From positions 1 through 24,587 of the IMG/VR virus record IMGVR_UViG_2724679236_000014: a stretch of DNA of 24,587 nt, one strand, 5' to 3'. Below, piece after piece: positions 4,589 to 17,297 of this stretch. Every line of letters starts with the position of its first letter. The first letter of the stretch is position 1. This stretch comes from a virus (Duplodnaviria > Heunggongvirae > Uroviricota > Caudoviricetes). The notes below the pieces were generated by a model. It searched no databases. It was not told the origin of the DNA and saw nothing but the letters and a program-made list of their open reading frames with translations. A program made the translations under genes and the position numbers.

Positions 4589-5551
4589 TCAACTAATCGA
4601 CTCAGCACTGGCTTTTGCAATCACTGCAGCCGGGGAAGCTTTTTTTCTGGTGATAGTTGGCGCTTCGTCAGCAGCGGTAATGCTCAACTGAACCTGGATA
4701 ATATCGGTATTACCGCCGTCAGGCCATTCACCTGATATCTGAACTTTAGGAAAACTGAAAGTGTATTCCCCCTCACCATTCGAAAGCGTGAAATTGAACG
4801 GAACAGTCTCCCCTGTCAGCGTTTTACTCCATATTTTCCACGCAGCTTTAGACCATGAAAGCGTCACAGTACCGGACGGTGTGAAGGTTGTCGGAATATT
4901 AGCTCCGGCATAAGGAGAACCAGTCCCGACACAACGCTGGGTCTGAAGTTTGTTATCGAACTGGATATCAAAGCTGTCGATACAAAAACCGTTACCTCCG
5001 GCAACACCATTCAGACTTACAGCTGAAACTTCCTTAAACGAATAACGTAACTTTCCTGCACTATCTACAGGCTCGCCTTTGATAAAATTCGTATCATCGG
5101 CCTTTGATTCCCAGTCCAGCCCGGCAAAAGTGACTGTCGCAGTAATATCACCGTCGTTAGGGATCTGCATTTTCCACGATCCAACCTGTGCCCCCCTGAC
5201 GATAGAGGCAATTCCCACATCTGACGCATATGTTGCCAGAGAAAATGTTATTCGCTCATTCCCCATAGTCAGAGAATCTCCTGACCATTCCGCGCCGAAA
5301 CAGGATGCAAGGAAATCATCATGTTGGCCCCAGCGAAATTTGGTACCAACATCACCGCCGACATCCACAGTGCCAGGCGTCGCCCCCTGAGCCATACGAG
5401 AACCACCGATCTCATTATTTTCGCCTTTATTCTGGGTTGGTTTTACTCCCCAGCTTGTGCGCTTTAATAAACTCCAGTCACCACTAGCTGGCGTGGTGCC
5501 TGCAATTGTCTCCCGGATAAATGCCGAGATAACCTTTGCACCTGAACTCAC
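4589..5551 (-). CDS. Major tail (tube) protein with a C-terminal Ig-like region (320 aa, GTG start)
   Basis: Supplied ORF; start codon is GTG (plus cac at 5549-5551) with AGGAGG 5 nt upstream; Ser/Thr/Gly-rich beta-type composition; position directly upstream of the G/GT chaperones. Confidence 0.8.
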   Translation of the reverse strand: MSSGAKVISAFIRETIAGTTPASGDWSLLKRTSWGVKPTQNKGENNEIGGSRMAQGATPGTVDVGGDVGTKFRWGQHDDFLASCFGAEWSGDSLTMGNERITFSLATYASDVGIASIVRGAQVGSWKMQIPNDGDITATVTFAGLDWESKADDTNFIKGEPVDSAGKLRYSFKEVSAVSLNGVAGGNGFCIDSFDIQFDNKLQTQRCVGTGSPYAGANIPTTFTPSGTVTLSWSKAAWKIWSKTLTGETVPFNFTLSNGEGEYTFSFPKVQISGEWPDGGNTDIIQVQLSITAADEAPTITRKKASPAAVIAKASAESIS

Positions 5552-12008: not shown

Positions 12009-14324
12009 TTAAATCCGAAGTGATGTAACTCTTCCGGTCGGTTTGACAATAGGGAATTGCTTAACAATAAAATAACCTCCGGCATCATTCGGGTGATCGT
12101 TGCCAGATTTTTTATCAGGCTCACCCTTGTCATCCCAGACCTGTTGCTCCAGAGATTCGGCATATACCGGACAACGCTTCACATTAACTTTATAGCGACG
12201 CTCACCATTGGCATTGCAGAACATTGCATTCATTGAGTTAACGCGATCTTTTACTGGCGGATTCGAACTGTTTACAACAACGTTAAAACCAGCCTGTTTA
12301 AGTTGAGCAATATCCGTCGCACTTGCGTTATTTGATTTTCTGGAATCCCCGGATGCATCAGGATAAATATAAATTTCCCTTACTTTCCGATAATCATTCC
12401 CGTCATATAACCAGAAGCGCTCTTTAATAATACGGATCATATCTGGTGTATCGTAAGCGTTAATGATTTCAGTTACTGCACATGGAAGCCCAAAACGTAA
12501 CACATGAACGACTCCAGCCATTTTTCCGACGTTAAAATCCATCCCGATATATATCGGCTCACCTGGCTGTTCCTCTTCTTCGCAATTATTCAGTTTTCGG
12601 TCAAACTGATGGTAAACAGTACCACTTGTCAGGTTAGTAAACTGTCCTCGAAGATAGGCTTTAATCAGCTCTGGAGGATATGACTCAAGGAGCGAGGGAA
12701 TGTAATCTGCTGGCAAATTCTTTTCATTATCGAAAGTAGATGCCTGTACCAGACCATACAGTGAGACCAGCTCTGTTTTTTCACGTACGGCTTTAACAAA
12801 CTGCTCGTAGACAAATTTGAATCCTTCCGGCGTGGTTGTAACGTCAATACCGTTGCGAAGTCCATCAACCTTATAACGCATACGCGCAATTATCTTGCGC
12901 CACGCTGTTCTGGCTTTTTCCTTCGGCAAAATGTCCAGTTCATCCACCAGCGCATTACCAATTTTGAAACCGACGATCGTTTGCGGCTTCTCCATCGATC
13001 TGCAGATAGTGGTTCCCCGATACTGACGTCCGTAATAAAAATGAACTTCTTTATTTCCCTCGTTAATTTTTACATTTAGCCCCCAGTCGGCAGCAACTTC
13101 TTCAACTGTGGGATAAAAAATATCGCGAATTTGTGGATATGTAGGCGCAAAATATCCCTGATTGATACCCGGATGCTCCCAAATCCCCTTACATATGCCA
13201 CCACACCCAACCCATGTTTTACCGCTATTGTGATGAATCGTCCCATCAGCAGTTACGTAGCAGTTATTATCCAATACCTGGAGGTCATAATATGGCTCGG
13301 CCTCCTGCAACAGTGTTACACTCAATATGTTGCAGGTTTCGATTAAGGAGTTTGGTTTTGACGCCTCTTGACCATTTAATTTGTGATTTAGCACATCCAG
13401 AACGTACCGTTTCAGAAGTTGCTTCTCTGGCAGGTTGTGACCGCAGTCATGTTTATCGTTGCATATCTCGTTATGGGTTAACGCTGAAACAACGCCAGAA
13501 GCCTGTCCCTCGAGAAAATGCGAAGGACAGAATCCTCGCTCTTGCTGATGGTCACCGTACGTCGGCAGAGATCGCGGCGGAAGTTGGTTGCACAGAAAAG
13601 CACGTTCAAAATATTCTCCGAATTCACAACGCCAACCGGCTCCCCCGTGGCGCCAGAAAGGGTGAGTTGAACCCCAGCTTTCGTGGTGGTCGAATTGTTG
13701 ATCTGGATGGATATGCCGTTGTTCCAGCGCCTGCTGACCATCCATATATGCGCAGAACAGGCATGATGTTTGAACATCGTTTGATCGCTGAAAAGAAGCT
13801 GGGGCGTTATCTGCTGCCATCAGAAGTTGTTGACCATATCGACGGGCTTCATCTGCATAACACCCCAAGTAATCTGCGAGTTTTTGATTCAAACGTGGAT
13901 CACCTGCGTGCAACGATTTCGGGACGGCGGCCAAACTGGTCAGAAGAAGGTTTTGCGAAGATGCAAATACCTTCACCGATTCGTCCAGACTATCCACAGA
14001 TCGATAGCTACCGTCAGCGCAAAAAACGCGGTGATGTCCGCTTGCTACAAATTCTCCTCGCTGCGTCACTACTCGGTATAGATTCGCCACACCTTTTGGG
14101 TACGCACCACCACTTAGCGAAAGCTCAAATCGATTATTCTCATCCGACCAAGATAAAACGCGCATTGGTCGAGTTATTTCCTGAATGGGTAGAATCCCAT
14201 TCTCTGTAACCACAGGCGTACTTCCCCTCAGGCAACCAAAACCAGCAACATAGGCTTTAAATTTATGATGCATAGAAAGAAATCGCGCCTGAGGCACATT
14301 AAGCGTCGGAGAGATCATCTTCAT
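12009..14324 (-). CDS. Terminase large subunit interrupted by an in-frame intein in the Walker A P-loop; predicted spliced product about 435 aa
   Basis: Exteins join as ...KAYVAGFG + SGKTW..., giving the Walker A motif AGFGSGKT; Walker B-like ALVDELD and nuclease-type IYIGMDFN and YPDASG motifs lie in the C-extein. Start is uncertain (ATG at 14324, 14318 or 14345); the supplied ORF's further N-terminal extension to 14756 overlaps terS in another frame and is not taken as coding. Confidence 0.85.
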   Translation of the reverse strand: MKMISPTLNVPQARFLSMHHKFKAYVAGFGCLRGSTPVVTENGILPIQEITRPMRVLSWSDENNRFELSLSGGAYPKGVANLYRVVTQRGEFVASGHHRVFCADGSYRSVDSLDESVKVFASSQNLLLTSLAAVPKSLHAGDPRLNQKLADYLGCYADEARRYGQQLLMAADNAPASFQRSNDVQTSCLFCAYMDGQQALEQRHIHPDQQFDHHESWGSTHPFWRHGGAGWRCEFGEYFERAFLCNQLPPRSLPTYGDHQQERGFCPSHFLEGQASGVVSALTHNEICNDKHDCGHNLPEKQLLKRYVLDVLNHKLNGQEASKPNSLIETCNILSVTLLQEAEPYYDLQVLDNNCYVTADGTIHHNSGKTWVGCGGICKGIWEHPGINQGYFAPTYPQIRDIFYPTVEEVAADWGLNVKINEGNKEVHFYYGRQYRGTTICRSMEKPQTIVGFKIGNALVDELDILPKEKARTAWRKIIARMRYKVDGLRNGIDVTTTPEGFKFVYEQFVKAVREKTELVSLYGLVQASTFDNEKNLPADYIPSLLESYPPELIKAYLRGQFTNLTSGTVYHQFDRKLNNCEEEEQPGEPIYIGMDFNVGKMAGVVHVLRFGLPCAVTEIINAYDTPDMIRIIKERFWLYDGNDYRKVREIYIYPDASGDSRKSNNASATDIAQLKQAGFNVVVNSSNPPVKDRVNSMNAMFCNANGERRYKVNVKRCPVYAESLEQQVWDDKGEPDKKSGNDHPNDAGGYFIVKQFPIVKPTGRVTSLRI
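13227..14234 (-). mobile_element. Intein (336 codons) inserted in the TerL P-loop
   Basis: Block A-like CLRGSTPVVTENG starts with Cys at 14234..14232; block B-like SGHHRVF; C-terminal blocks YYDLQVLDNNCYVTADGTIHHN end with His-Asn (Asn codon 13229..13227) and are followed by Ser(+1). Codons were checked against the plus-strand sequence. Confidence 0.8.
13358..14209 (+). CDS. HTH-HNH homing-endonuclease-like ORF encoded antisense inside the intein (TTG start, about 283 aa)
   Basis: Plus-strand translation contains HNH_3-like EHRLIAEKKLGRYLLPSEVVDHIDGLHLHNTPSNLRVFDSNVDH and two HTH-like segments; TAAGGAG (13344-13350) lies 7 nt upstream of an in-frame TTG at 13358. The C-terminal ~95 codons overlap the intein N-terminal blocks on the other strand and look like non-coding read-through. 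Confidence 0.55.
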   Translation: MTPLDHLICDLAHPERTVSEVASLAGCDRSHVYRCISRYGLTLKQRQKPVPRENAKDRILALADGHRTSAEIAAEVGCTEKHVQNILRIHNANRLPRGARKGELNPSFRGGRIVDLDGYAVVPAPADHPYMRRTGMMFEHRLIAEKKLGRYLLPSEVVDHIDGLHLHNTPSNLRVFDSNVDHLRATISGRRPNWSEEGFAKMQIPSPIRPDYPQIDSYRQRKKRGDVRLLQILLAASLLGIDSPHLLGTHHHLAKAQIDYSHPTKIKRALVELFPEWVESHSL

Positions 14325-15393
14325 CACACCTAACTCTGGCATCAACCACATTAATATTGATCGCCACAGGCTGGGGATGTTCATTACCCTCCACCGTTTC
14401 GATCTCTTTGCGCAGTTTCTGGTTTTCCATTCTGCGCCGTTCAATTTCCAGTTCCTGTAGTCGCTTATCTGCACATAATGCCCCGCCAGCGGAAAGCAAA
14501 CGCAATAATTCACGCCGGGCGGCAGCTTTATTCTCCAGCAGGATCTCAACGCCGAATTTTCCGAGCTTTGCTCCTGCATACAATTGCCGCGCATTTCCAT
14601 CAAGCAAAGTGGTATCAGCCATATAAAGCTGACCTGTACCTTCTCCACCGCATTTCGGACAGTCTGGATTTGGTATGGCGCTATCAACGAAACCGAGGCC
14701 ACCATATTCAGGTTCTGGTTTACCATCTTTGGATGCCTGCGCGGCAGCCCTGTCAAATTCTGCTATATCGCGCCACTGATAGAGGTGATTCTCCCCCCAG
14801 CAATAGCGACAGTTAACACGGCGAAATTGCGCAAGCTGATTGGGATCAGCCTGCACGATGGCCATCAACTGACTCACCAGTAAATCCAGGTCTGCGGTAT
14901 AGCGTTTCTGGTAATGATTGCGAAAGTAGCTGATGGCACGAAAAACCCTAGCATTTCTAAGCATACGACTGGCATTGCTGTTTGCTGTCGCACCTTGCCC
15001 CTCGTAACCAGCCAGGCGGTATGCCTCTGTCGGCTTTTTCCCCTGAGCAACCAACATGGCGAATTTTGCCTGCTGGTCAGAAATACCGAATTCATCGGGG
15101 CAAAACGAAATTTCTTCCGTGTCCCCCTCAATCAGGAGTGCATCGGATACAGCCTTTTTTTTCTGAGATTTTCCGTTTTGCTTTTGCGCAGTCTGCGCAG
15201 TTTTTTTTCGCGCACTTTTTTGCGCAGTTTTGCGCACTTCTGTCTGCGCATTTTTCGGAGGTTTCTTGATGTAACGACGGGCTGTTGCGTAATTCAGTCC
15301 CTTTGCTTCACACCACGCCACCGGAGATACACCGGAGCGGGTGTATTCAGCAATATATTCCTGCTGCAACGCCCCCCAGTCCGGTCTGCTCAT
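14299..15393 (-). CDS. Terminase small subunit-like protein (364 aa): N-terminal HTH, Lys/Arg-rich repeat linker, C-terminal CxxC...CxxC zinc ribbon
   Basis: Supplied ORF immediately upstream of and overlapping terL; N-terminus (EYIAEYTRSGVSPVAWCEAKGLNYATARRYI) resembles TerS DNA-binding domains; CRYC and CPKC pairs. Confidence 0.6.
   Translation of the reverse strand: MSRPDWGALQQEYIAEYTRSGVSPVAWCEAKGLNYATARRYIKKPPKNAQTEVRKTAQKSARKKTAQTAQKQNGKSQKKKAVSDALLIEGDTEEISFCPDEFGISDQQAKFAMLVAQGKKPTEAYRLAGYEGQGATANSNASRMLRNARVFRAISYFRNHYQKRYTADLDLLVSQLMAIVQADPNQLAQFRRVNCRYCWGENHLYQWRDIAEFDRAAAQASKDGKPEPEYGGLGFVDSAIPNPDCPKCGGEGTGQLYMADTTLLDGNARQLYAGAKLGKFGVEILLENKAAARRELLRLLSAGGALCADKRLQELEIERRRMENQKLRKEIETVEGNEHPQPVAININVVDARVRCDEDDLSDA
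15185..15250. repeat. Array of six (T/C)GCGCA palindromic hexamers separated by T-tracts, inside terS
   Basis: Hexamers start at 15185, 15194, 15209 (cgcgca), 15221, 15231 and 15245, spaced 9-15 bp apart with intervening T runs. Confidence 0.6.
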
Positions 15394-15396
15394 CAG

Positions 15397-15648
15397 TTAG
15401 TCCTGATTTTTATCCACCCTGAGTAATGCACGCAGAGCAAAGGCATCCCCTTTTCTGGCAAGCTTAAACAATGCCGCCCGTAGCTCGGCTTCACCTTTCG
15501 CTCTGCCCTTACGGATGGACGCATAAAAATTTGTCATTGTTTCCCGATTTTCTTTCAGTCTGTTCAGATCAACATCCAGAACGTCAGCGATTTGTTGTGC
15601 AGTCATCCGGCATGCTGCCAGAGACTCGACTTTCGAATACGGAATCAT
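15397..15648 (-). CDS. Small HTH-containing protein (83 aa), possibly packaging-associated or regulatory
   Basis: Supplied ORF ending 3 nt before the terS start; TAQQIADVLDVDLNRL resembles a helix-turn-helix. Confidence 0.4.
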   Translation of the reverse strand: MIPYSKVESLAACRMTAQQIADVLDVDLNRLKENRETMTNFYASIRKGRAKGEAELRAALFKLARKGDAFALRALLRVDKNQD

Positions 15649-16516
15649 TTATCACCCCCATTGATATGCAGGGTGTCTTCTTCCTGTATTTTTCGTGAAG
15701 GATTTTTACTGCAGCGTTGTTCCAGGTGACCTGATGGTGAATGCGTTTATGGCTGGCGCCCATCAGTGAGATTTTTACGCACGACGGCGCATACATGACG
15801 GAGTAAAAACTTTTAACGTAGGTACCGGAATCCAGATACAGTTCGGTCATTCCGCCGCTGTTTTTCTGCGTTTGCTTCTGCCCTAACTGGACAGCGCCAA
15901 TCGTCAAAAACAATTCACCACGACGACCGAGATTCGTGTATGTATTCACATCCTCGTTAATACGCCCCATAAATGAGAATGGTCGGTCAACAGAACAAAT
16001 AAAGCTGTTCATTGCTTTGCGTTTCACCCATGCAGCATGACCACCATTATCACCAAGAAAGTCTCCCCCCTGCGCCATAGCGATGGAAAGCGCAGGAATT
16101 GATTCGTAATACGCCAGCATTTCAGAAAGGATCGCGTCCAGTTTCCTTATCGGAAAATAAGCCTGGTCATAGTTGCGATCTACCCGAAACTGAAACTCGT
16201 GATAGTCGTCATCAAGCTGGATGTAGTATTTACACCCAACCTTTTTTGCCAGGCCCAAACAGGCATTCCTAGCATAAAAGATTGAACGTCGATCGCCAAA
16301 GTTGTCGGCTTCGTCAAAACGACTGGCGATATCGGCTTTGGAAAACACCAGCACCTGCTCACCAAATTCTGCTACGTACTGATGCTGGGTTTTATCTTCA
16401 TCATCAACAACGATAAAAATTTTCCCGGTATAGCCAGCACGACGCAACGTCCGGTAAGTCAGAACTTTGTCCGGTCGCCCGTGAGTCAGAATAAAGGCGC
16501 AAAAATCATCACGCAT
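15584..16516 (-). CDS. GT-A fold (family 2-like) glycosyltransferase-like protein with no obvious membrane segment (about 310 aa from ATG 16516)
   Basis: N-terminal FILTHGRPDKV...IFIVVDDEDK resembles the GT2 signature (hhhPTYNR...IVVDDGS); a DDD (DxD-like) motif sits in YIQLDDDYHEF. The ATG at 16516 follows GAGGAGGAG and the ParB-like stop (TAATATG). Confidence 0.45.
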   Translation of the reverse strand: MRDDFCAFILTHGRPDKVLTYRTLRRAGYTGKIFIVVDDEDKTQHQYVAEFGEQVLVFSKADIASRFDEADNFGDRRSIFYARNACLGLAKKVGCKYYIQLDDDYHEFQFRVDRNYDQAYFPIRKLDAILSEMLAYYESIPALSIAMAQGGDFLGDNGGHAAWVKRKAMNSFICSVDRPFSFMGRINEDVNTYTNLGRRGELFLTIGAVQLGQKQTQKNSGGMTELYLDSGTYVKSFYSVMYAPSCVKISLMGASHKRIHHQVTWNNAAVKILHEKYRKKTPCISMGVINDSVFESRVSGSMPDDCTTNR

Positions 16517-16517
16517 A

Positions 16518-17297
16518 TTACTCCTCCTCGCCATGCATGATCTCCACCATGCGCTGCGTCATCCTGACAAACCCATTTTCAATTGCCTGCTGATAATCAA
16601 TGATCACCAGAGCCGATTCCTCAAAAAGGCTCTGAATTTCAGCGGGGGCGTGAGCGTAATAGTCCGCGATTCTGCTGAAATTAAACACCGTGTGACGTTC
16701 TGCCGCGCACAGAAGGAATTTCTCAATATCAGGATCAAGGGACACCGAACGTATCCGGCTGATCAGCTCCTGAGTTTTCGTATCGTCGTACAGTTCACAG
16801 ATATCCGGTTTATCGCCTGACGGCTCATAAACAGGCGTATCAATTTTCGTCGTATACGGCTCCTCCTCATTTCCTGTACCAGGCAAAATATCCGTCAACA
16901 GTTCATCAATTTCTGTCGGGCTGAAGCCTGTCAGGGAGACATCAAAATCAGCATTAATTAGGTCCGACAGCTCCATCCGTAACAGATCTTCATCCCAGCC
17001 AGCATTCATCGGCAGGCGATTATCTGCCAGACGGTACGCCTTTTTCTGATCATCCGTCAGACCAGACAGAACGATGACCGGAACGAAATCCATTTTGAGC
17101 ACTTCAGCCGCCATAACGCGACCGTGACCCGCAATAACTTCGCCTTTTTCATCAATCAGCACCGGATTAGTCCAGCCAAATTGCTTAATGCTTTCTACCA
17201 GTTGCGTCACCTGCTCAGGGCTGTGTGTCCTGGCATTGTGTGCATACGGAGACAGTTCTTGTAACGGGCGATAGACGATCTTCAATTTCTCGCTCAT
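16518..17297 (-). CDS. ParB-like nuclease domain protein (259 aa)
   Basis: N-terminal ParB/Srx-type motifs: YAHNARTH and GHGRVMAA (GxxRxxA box); acidic C-terminus; GAGG RBS upstream of the ATG. Confidence 0.75.
   Translation of the reverse strand: MSEKLKIVYRPLQELSPYAHNARTHSPEQVTQLVESIKQFGWTNPVLIDEKGEVIAGHGRVMAAEVLKMDFVPVIVLSGLTDDQKKAYRLADNRLPMNAGWDEDLLRMELSDLINADFDVSLTGFSPTEIDELLTDILPGTGNEEEPYTTKIDTPVYEPSGDKPDICELYDDTKTQELISRIRSVSLDPDIEKFLLCAAERHTVFNFSRIADYYAHAPAEIQSLFEESALVIIDYQQAIENGFVRMTQRMVEIMHGEEE

Follow-up and report, generated by a model that had tools for sequence, protein, structure and literature searches.

How the small terminase subunits (TerS) of headful phages recognise their pac sites is a long-standing problem. 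In phage P1 the pac hexamers, of sequence TGATCA/G, fall within the terminase gene pacA, in a 4 + 3 arrangement about the cut region; each includes a GATC, and Dam methylation controls them. The P1 pac has been described as a complex site with seven hexanucleotide repeats (PMC11260489). The P22 pac is found within the terS coding sequence, where wobble-position engineering is tolerated (PMC9611059, PMC11260489). In SPP1 and SF6 it spans the 5' end of terS and contains direct-repeat sets in AT-rich, bendable DNA; the DNA-binding domain of the SF6/SPP1 TerS, G1P, binds it weakly and non-specifically, and the box repeats matter little (PMC4737164). A 2022 review describes TerS-pac binding in P22, Sf6, SPP1 and SF6 as weak, mostly sequence-independent and hard to study, and calls the mechanism of headful TerS-pac recognition unclear (PMC9611059). 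Closer to the locus analysed here, phiC725A has a homologous TerS core and its virion read coverage peaks from the terS region, headful packaging being documented for the F116/phiC725A group (PMC5217972).

Among cos phages, lambda, 21 and N15 owe their packaging specificity to covariation between the recognition helix and the R sites; one of the R sites is in inverted orientation, and the terS gene of N15 itself contains an accessory site, rR2 (PMC4669245). In these cosB phages TerS is a winged-HTH dimer of the Nu1 type, and there are 3 sites of ~12-16 bp along with an IHF bend and a cosN nicking site.

The window, by which we mean the whole stretch of 24,587 nucleotides that was analysed, carries an array of TGCGCA-type hexamers inside terS, and its TerL has headful-type relatives. 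Judging from sequence comparison, we consider it probable, at roughly 70%, that this array is a cluster of sites for an HTH-like N-terminal domain of TerS and constitutes the sequence-specific recognition element of a headful pac. The TerL relatives are those of Jersey-like, Kagunavirus and F116-like phages. Headful packaging holds for the Jersey-like and Kagunavirus relatives as well.

The R sites of the lambda, 21 and N15 cosB may be regarded as the closest mechanistic precedent. As in cosB (lambda, 21, N15, Monarch), several short sites for a TerS HTH would lie next to or inside terS, and the site sequence co-varies with the recognition helix (here ARRYIKK with TGCGCA and AKRYIKI with TGCGAA). 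The locus differs from cosB in having a Terminase_2 TerS with an added N-domain, 4-7 six-bp sites within its own linker codons, and headful TerL relatives. No evidence of cos was found, and the TerS belongs to Terminase_2/phrog_51, not to Nu1. Since TerS is not of the Nu1 type and the TerL relatives are headful, the array would be cosB-like in its working without being a member of that group.

The other precedents resemble the array in fewer respects. The 4 + 3 arrangement of the P1 pac recalls the two opposed sub-arrays found in sister classes of the present TerS; in contrast to P1, the array contains no GATC and its TerS is not PacA-like, PacA being unrelated to Terminase_2 TerS, and on these grounds membership of the P1 type was rejected. 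SPP1 and SF6 (pacL-pacC-pacR, G1P) share the Pfam family of the TerS, Terminase_2, whereas G1P has neither the extra N-domain nor the long linker, and here specificity would reside in a candidate module of its own, whose motif is sharply defined. With regard to the SPP1-type criterion of bent DNA, A-tracts flank every hexamer and the 9-15 bp spacing keeps no helical phase. The P22 pac is likewise inside the terS coding sequence but consists of one asymmetric sequence of 22 bp instead of a repeat array (PMC9611059), and goes with another TerS family. The first-pass annotation had cited P22, SPP1 and P1 as examples of pac sites built from short repeats: P1 with its seven hexamers is a proper precedent and SPP1 a loose one, while P22 has to be withdrawn from the list. 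Literature searches on TGCGCA in connection with terminase, and on the termini of vB_EcoS-*R*, vB_YenM and related phages, returned nothing relevant, and we found no prior description of sites placed in the linker codons behind a reader domain or of such motif-domain covariation.

Composition of the array and of its gene

The features of the locus are listed in Table 1. The pattern search confirmed the six (T/C)GCGCA copies that had been noticed in the first-pass annotation, as well as their location in the Lys/Ala/Gln/Thr linker codons of terS. Successive spacings are 9, 15, 12, 10 and 14 bp, and the copies are separated by T-runs on the plus strand, which are A-runs on the coding strand. Of the interval 15150-15255 proposed at that stage, the part holding the hexamers stands, and the first 15150-15184 segment does not belong to the array. 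The array had also been called phased. The spacings are indeed regular, but the cumulative offsets (0, 14, 24, 36, 51 and 60 bp) are scattered over the helical turn, so that helical phasing of the repeats was ruled out; Tandem Repeats Finder (TRF) detected no single period on the array, only weak overlapping periods of 10, 12, 22, 24 and 36 (73-82% matches). Over the whole window TGCGCA was observed 21 times against 9.8 +/- 3.1 expected, with at most 2 sites per 66-bp stretch outside the array. The Poisson estimate for at least 6 sites in one 66-bp stretch anywhere in the window is ~4e-6.

Table 1. Coordinates in the window of the terminase genes, the TerS regions and the array (plus-strand positions; hexamers located by sequence reading and pattern search and numbered in coding order)
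Feature	Coordinates	Strand	Codons or domain data	Remarks
terL, large terminase (Terminase_6N/6C)	12009..14324	-		start codon approximate
Intein of 336 aa splitting terL	13227..14234
terS, small terminase subunit, 364 aa	14299..15393	-	Pfam Terminase_2 (PF03592) 31.4 bits, cut-off 26.1; phrog_51 8e-74
TerS residues 95-160, second helical domain, canonical G1P-like (Terminase_2) HTH	14914..15111	-	pLDDT 68-84	weak match to Pam5 TerS DNA-binding domain
TerS residues 46-94, Lys/Ala/Gln/Thr-rich linker, predicted disordered	15112..15258	-	AlphaFold pLDDT <50 at residues 48-94	codons carry the array
Linker coding sequence, A-tract-rich	15150..15184			hexamers absent
Array (functional core), 5 TGCGCA + 1 CGCGCA (coding strand TGCGCG)	15185..15250		codons 48-70, peptide NAQTEVRKTAQKSARKKTAQTAQ	A-rich flanks per copy on the coding strand
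Hexamer 6, TGCGCA	15185..15190		T68-A69-Q70	TGCACA in 12/23 close relatives
Hexamer 5, TGCGCA	15194..15199		T65-A66-Q67
Hexamer 4, degenerate TGCGCG (coding strand)	15209..15214		S60-A61-R62	TGCGCA in 18/23 close relatives
Hexamer 3, TGCGCA	15221..15226		T56-A57-Q58	invariant in 23/23 close relatives
Hexamer 2, TGCGCA	15231..15236		other frame, GTG-CGC-AAA, V53-R54-K55	lost in 6/23 close relatives
Hexamer 1, TGCGCA	15245..15250		xxT-GCG-CAx, N48-A49-Q50	invariant in 23/23 close relatives
TerS residues 1-45, extra N-terminal three-helix domain	15259..15393	-	AlphaFold pLDDT 75-90

We propose that the N-terminal domain of TerS is the reader of the hexamers. In the AlphaFold model its helices cover residues 6-20, 24-31 and 35 onward, and N34-YATARRYIKK-44 is the putative recognition helix. 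When a 48-residue model of the domain was compared with the PDB using Foldseek, the structural neighbours were almost all HTH DNA-binding domains, including the N-terminal HTH of IstA, Aca1, NtrX, sigma region 4 and, with 1.8 A over 38 residues, the operator-bound DNA-binding domain of DeoR; with so short a query all E-values were above 0.1 and none was significant, and it is only the make-up of this match list that points to an HTH character. Pfam assigned no significant HTH family to the N-domain of the window's class (class A), and the N-domains of sister classes D, E and G match HTH_50 or HTH_psq. A profile search with the N-domain for other protein architectures recovered short, truncated terS ORFs only, and PDB sequence searches with TerS and TerL gave nothing useful. 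The model places a second confident helical domain at residues 99-160. Because the alignment is shallow, it has low confidence beyond residue 160 and is thus silent on oligomer geometry. With its early region missing, the window's prophage may be defective.

Hexamers against the peptide repeat

Five copies of the hexamer are read in one frame, as Asn/Thr/Ser-Ala-Gln/Arg, and the copy at 15231 in another, as Val-Arg-Lys. We resampled terS codons 45-74 synonymously with two codon sets. The mean number of hexamers expected was ~0.5-1 (~0.5 with the codon usage of the window) against 6 observed, and none of 200,000 resamplings reached 6 with either set (P < 5e-6). GCG encodes each of the five alanines in the array, compared with 7 of 41 elsewhere in terS. 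Codon identity could have been inherited from a recent duplication, hence the decisive evidence must be comparative.

For this comparison 219 loci were retrieved by protein similarity, 21 from species-representative genomes, 193 from viral contigs and 5 from phage records. Statistics including loci ascertained through the motif were discarded as circular and redone on protein-ascertained loci only, which left 33 non-redundant class A terS genes. Relatives with the N-terminal domain at 38-55% protein identity (from Superficieibacter, Serratia, Buttiauxella, Pantoea and Erwinia) contain 4-5 TGCGCA at the same position. Their N-domain consensus is ..W-C-E..G-L-N-Y..A-R-R-Y-I-K-K; their linker peptides differ, and the hexamers are read in all three frames, including as Cys-Ala (TGC-GCA). 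The 31 class A genes with an ARRY[IL]K[KN] helix (of the 33) all possess 3-7 TGCGCA at nt 121-300. In this interval TGCGCA occurs, over class A, at a density of 2.81 per 100 nt, 25x the 0.114 of the remainder of the same genes. The array usually starts 135-147 nt into the gene, directly 3' of the N-domain, with modal spacings of 12 and 15 bp and a mean of 13.4; 25 of 86 spacings are not divisible by three, and the hexamers are distributed over the three frames as 129, 26 and 12. Alanines of linker Ala-Gln pairs are encoded by GCG in 127 of 133 cases, compared with 206 of 1087 (19%) for alanines elsewhere. The class consensus of the site on the coding strand is AAAAc-TGCGCA-(a/g)AA.

In sister classes the reverse-complement halves of the array encode Lys-Val-Ser-Thr on one side and Met/Val-Glu-Lys on the other. 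As opposed halves code for unrelated peptides, a DNA-level constraint is the only explanation. The alternative offered alongside the first description of the array, namely that the DNA repeats simply mirror a repeated amino-acid motif, fails on the codon resampling, on the encoding in several frames and on these reverse-complement halves. A coding tandem repeat made by slippage, with one period that is a multiple of three and one frame, was likewise rejected, given the mixed TRF periods, the spacings of 10 and 14 bp and the two frames in the window. The array is real and has been selected at the DNA level.

The hexamer copy number varies among close relatives (4, 5, 6 or 7), and in 23 close relatives variable positions amount to 14% within hexamers and 18% between them, so that the hexamers are not more conserved than the intervals. 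This comparison does not discriminate within the close clade, where single copies are dispensable. In the close clade 17-22% of third codon positions vary within the block formed by the N-domain and the array (nt 1-215), compared with 71% elsewhere in the gene, which may reflect a wider DNA-level constraint or a recent spread of the module.

Motif classes, neighbouring genes and competing readings

Grouping of the N-domains by single linkage at 45% identity merged all GW-type classes and masked the motif pattern; a threshold of 68% identity was needed. Two representatives with an AKRYIKI helix, among them that of an infectious Yersinia phage, have no TGCGCA and possess TGCGAA or CTGCGAATTCGCAG instead. 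Further from class A, other motifs occupy the same place in terS, with A-tracts after each copy and usually in two opposed sub-arrays. N-domains of the GAIRKRA.KNGW type are followed by GTACGC x5 and then GCGTAC x1, those with IKALRYMAGK.GW by GGGGCA x3-5 and then TGCCCC, those with ISHTTINN..R.EGW by TTTCCA x2-3 and then TGGAAA x3-4, and those with IAK.TL.DMA by CGACC x2 and then GGTCG x3; one further lineage has TTCGC x3 followed by GCGAA x2. Classes B and C and locus L011 exhibit mostly direct repeats. No repeat array was detected in TerS whose N-terminus is the Terminase_2 HTH itself.

Two natural rearrangements bear on the coupling between domain and motif. The terS core of vB_Apl-pPE4 is ~86% nucleotide-identical to that of the window, yet the gene carries a class D N-domain together with a class D array; from this chimera we conclude that N-domain and array travel as a single module. 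In Rac-SA53 the N-domain has been deleted (the gene is annotated 'fusion of two genes by deletion'), and 3 of the 5 hexamers have decayed by point mutation while the peptide is nearly unchanged. N-domain and array being adjacent and co-inherited, part of the association between class and motif is due to linkage and not to independent co-evolution.

The reverse search was made on viral contigs for three TGCGCA 3-9 bp apart, using no protein information, and 122 of the resulting clusters were sampled. Seventy-six of them (62%) lie between -1 and +35 nt downstream of a class A N-domain. Most of the others are simple tandem repeats from GC-rich contigs or are truncated by the end of a locus; of those checked among the remainder, four sit directly 3' of an N-terminal HTH in another TerS family, phrog_1206. 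TGCGCA is used by at least two unrelated HTH types, so that the mapping of motif to domain is not one-to-one. We give about even odds to the broader proposal that in at least two TerS families (phrog_51/Terminase_2 and phrog_1206) the pac element would consist of 4-7 short sites read by the N-terminal HTH of the same protein and located in the codons of the disordered linker just behind it, with motif and helix co-varying (Arg39 with TGCGCA, Lys39 with TGCGAA).

As far as the compared sequences tell, the motif tracks the N-terminal domain of TerS and not the ParB, glycosyltransferase or TerL genes. The reading as a recognition site is strongly supported comparatively, because the motif co-varies with the N-domain and not with neighbouring genes. 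The candidate packaging recognition site of the first-pass annotation is upheld by this covariation, with which the motif-first scan agrees; that it is a pac is what we infer.

The same covariation would also fit an N-domain that binds the sites mainly for autoregulation, by roadblock or repression of terS and the late operon or by titration of TerS, since it reveals a protein-site pair and not its purpose; moreover, the SPP1 pac overlaps the terS promoters, and its authors discuss a gene-regulatory role (PMC4737164). We regard this reading as unlikely: the array is in the coding region, 135-210 nt past the start codon, and not in a promoter, DNA recognition for packaging is the sole known function of TerS, and the layout recurs in two unrelated TerS families. 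A dual use, in autoregulation and packaging, is possible and compatible with the recognition element of a headful pac.

Directly upstream of terS are genes for a ParB_N protein, a TET-associated-type glycosyltransferase (TAGT) and an 83-aa HTH protein (orf83), a trio that is conserved across genera. It could be supposed that one of these proteins, the glycosyltransferase system or a host protein binds or modifies the array. Locus L005 argues against this, as the array is kept there with no homologue of ParB, TAGT or orf83 within 3 kb upstream, and so does locus L010, which has all three neighbours (61-75% identity) and a TerL 85% identical but another N-domain and a GGGGCA array. A host factor would not account for motif shifts that, among phages of the same host genera, go with the phage N-domain, and action by any such factor is very unlikely.

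We rate slightly lower still a role at the RNA level, in which the hexamers would pair in the terS mRNA, or form DNA hairpins, and control translation, stability or slippage on A-runs. The region folds somewhat better than shuffled sequences with the hexamers pairing (z = -2.19, 8 of 200 shuffles equal), the inverted half-arrays of other classes could pair too, and the long A-runs are slippage-prone, many database terS being broken in the linker. This fold signal is weak, however, the Rfam search returned no match, and classes B, C and L011 have mostly direct repeats; furthermore, pairing permits compensatory drift, yet the hexamer is identical across the lineages at 38-55% identity and shifts only with the N-domain. 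Finally, a functionless low-complexity coding repeat, produced by replication slippage with codons identical by descent, is the least probable reading and is strongly disfavoured: the copy number of 4-7 among close relatives, the weak TRF periodicity and the ordinary conservation of hexamers in the close clade would suit it, but neither the spacings that are not multiples of three, the use of three frames and the unrelated peptides of opposed half-arrays, nor the persistence of hexamers despite linker divergence, their decay once the N-domain is lost and the 62% of motif-first matches found behind one protein domain are expected from it.

Proposed working and distribution of the element

Under the recognition-element reading, TerS would oligomerise through its Terminase_2 core, which belongs to the SPP1/SF6 G1P family, and specificity would be supplied by the added N-terminal domain. 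Several N-domains, held on flexible Lys-rich tethers of ~50 residues, could dock on neighbouring hexamers 9-15 bp apart, and multiple docking would yield specificity through avidity. The A-tract-rich DNA would then wrap on the TerS ring and TerL would be recruited, presumably cutting for the first time near the array; headful packaging would follow, probably toward terL and the head genes, that is in the direction of decreasing window coordinates. In this scheme we infer the physical binding, the oligomeric state, the cut position, the packaging direction and the packaging purpose. The opposed sub-arrays of sister classes and the palindromic hexamer of the window are consistent with domains docking in either orientation. 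As the array is encoded in linker codons, the Lys/Ala/Gln-rich peptide would be largely a by-product of the DNA element and, if confirmed, this would be a clear case of a protein-binding DNA element shaping the sequence of a disordered protein segment.

The system combines a sharply defined motif with a candidate reader domain that is separable, and both specificity variants and domain-swap chimeras occur in nature. If the reading is correct, pac specificity classes would be predictable from sequence, and the co-packaging or lateral transduction of prophages, satellites and chromosomal regions could become readable in the same way, which would be relevant to the lateral and generalised transduction of virulence and resistance genes.

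This type of TerS is common, being matched in 905 of 5426 complete E. coli genomes, and was also found in Klebsiella, Yersinia, Salmonella, Serratia, Pantoea and Erwinia phages. In Rac-SA53, enterotoxin genes adjoin the TerS module.

Conservation within terS and breaks in its linker

Among 23 close relatives, 17-22% of the third codon positions are variable in the part of terS that encodes the N-terminal domain and the hexamer array, whereas this proportion reaches 71% in the rest of the gene. Such a difference suggests either that this block is constrained at the DNA level beyond the hexamers themselves or that the module has recently spread by horizontal transfer. On its coding strand the linker has A runs that are 8-9 nt long (window positions 15155-15208). 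Many ORFs of 44-81 aa found in public databases as "terminase small subunit, partial" correspond to terS genes broken within the linker (proteins P0121-P0240), and the terS gene of one comparison locus, L088 (3001-4093), exhibits a +1 frameshift in the same region. Homopolymer sequencing error, pseudogenisation or slippage could be the cause of these breaks.

Features of the window discussed in this part
Feature	Position	Strand	Description
Intein in terL	13227..14234	minus	336 aa
ORF antisense to the terL intein	13214..14209	plus	331 aa, open; HTH and HNH endonuclease matches
N-domain and array block	15179-15393 (terS nt 1-215)	minus	much more conserved than other parts of terS in 23 close relatives
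83-aa ORF	15397-15648		between glycosyltransferase and terS; HTH-like; phrog_309 (2e-21)
Glycosyltransferase (TET-associated type) and ParB N-domain protein	15584-17297		directly upstream of terS; glycosyltransferase PF20691 (1.5e-35)
nin/Q genes	20060..21488		directly next after integrase and recE fragment
recE fragment	22193..22627		aligns with 672-809 of an exonuclease profile 1242 positions long
Integrase	23352..24587	plus

TGCGCA arrays at other loci

Four viral contigs (L222, L292, L309 and L335), picked up by the DNA motif alone, encode a second, unrelated family of small terminases of about 200 aa (phrog_1206). In these proteins an N-terminal HTH is immediately followed by the TGCGCA arrays, read mostly as Leu/Val-Arg-Lys/Thr/Ser codons.

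An unrelated viral contig, L221, carries two near-identical triple clusters (4593-4626 and 5463-5496) with the layout TGCGCA-N9-TGCGCA-N7-TGCGCA, each located just upstream of the start of an ORF. They look like operator arrays for another, putative TGCGCA-binding regulator.

Genes upstream of terS

In loci from Serratia, Superficieibacter, Pantoea and Erwinia, the glycosyltransferase/ParB N-domain pair is likewise kept beside terS; it does not track the repeat motif. Neither a TET/JBP dioxygenase nor a DNA methyltransferase was found within the window. The 83-aa ORF, whose sequence shares 65 nt with the 3' end of the glycosyltransferase gene, matches one part of a PHROG annotated as "terminase small subunit"; it shows no co-variation with the array. 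In Escherichia phage Rac-SA53 (L215, KU052037.1 23297-27205), eltIIaA and eltIIaB, the genes for heat-labile enterotoxin IIa, lie immediately upstream of a terS that is N-terminally truncated ("gpO-terS fusion by deletion") and whose hexamer array is partially decayed.

State of the prophage and the terL intein

The prophage is Rac-like and lacks its early region, as seen at window positions 20060-24587. Because neither replication nor immunity genes are present, the element may be defective.

The terL intein is inserted within the Walker A motif (AGFG|C...HN|SGKT); terL is uninterrupted in the close relatives L001, L002 and L087. Since the intein and the 331-aa ORF, which matches phrog_10730 (4.7e-49) and PF13392, occupy near-identical intervals on opposing strands (13214-14234), about 1 kb is open on both strands, as though the strand opposite the intein coded for the homing endonuclease.
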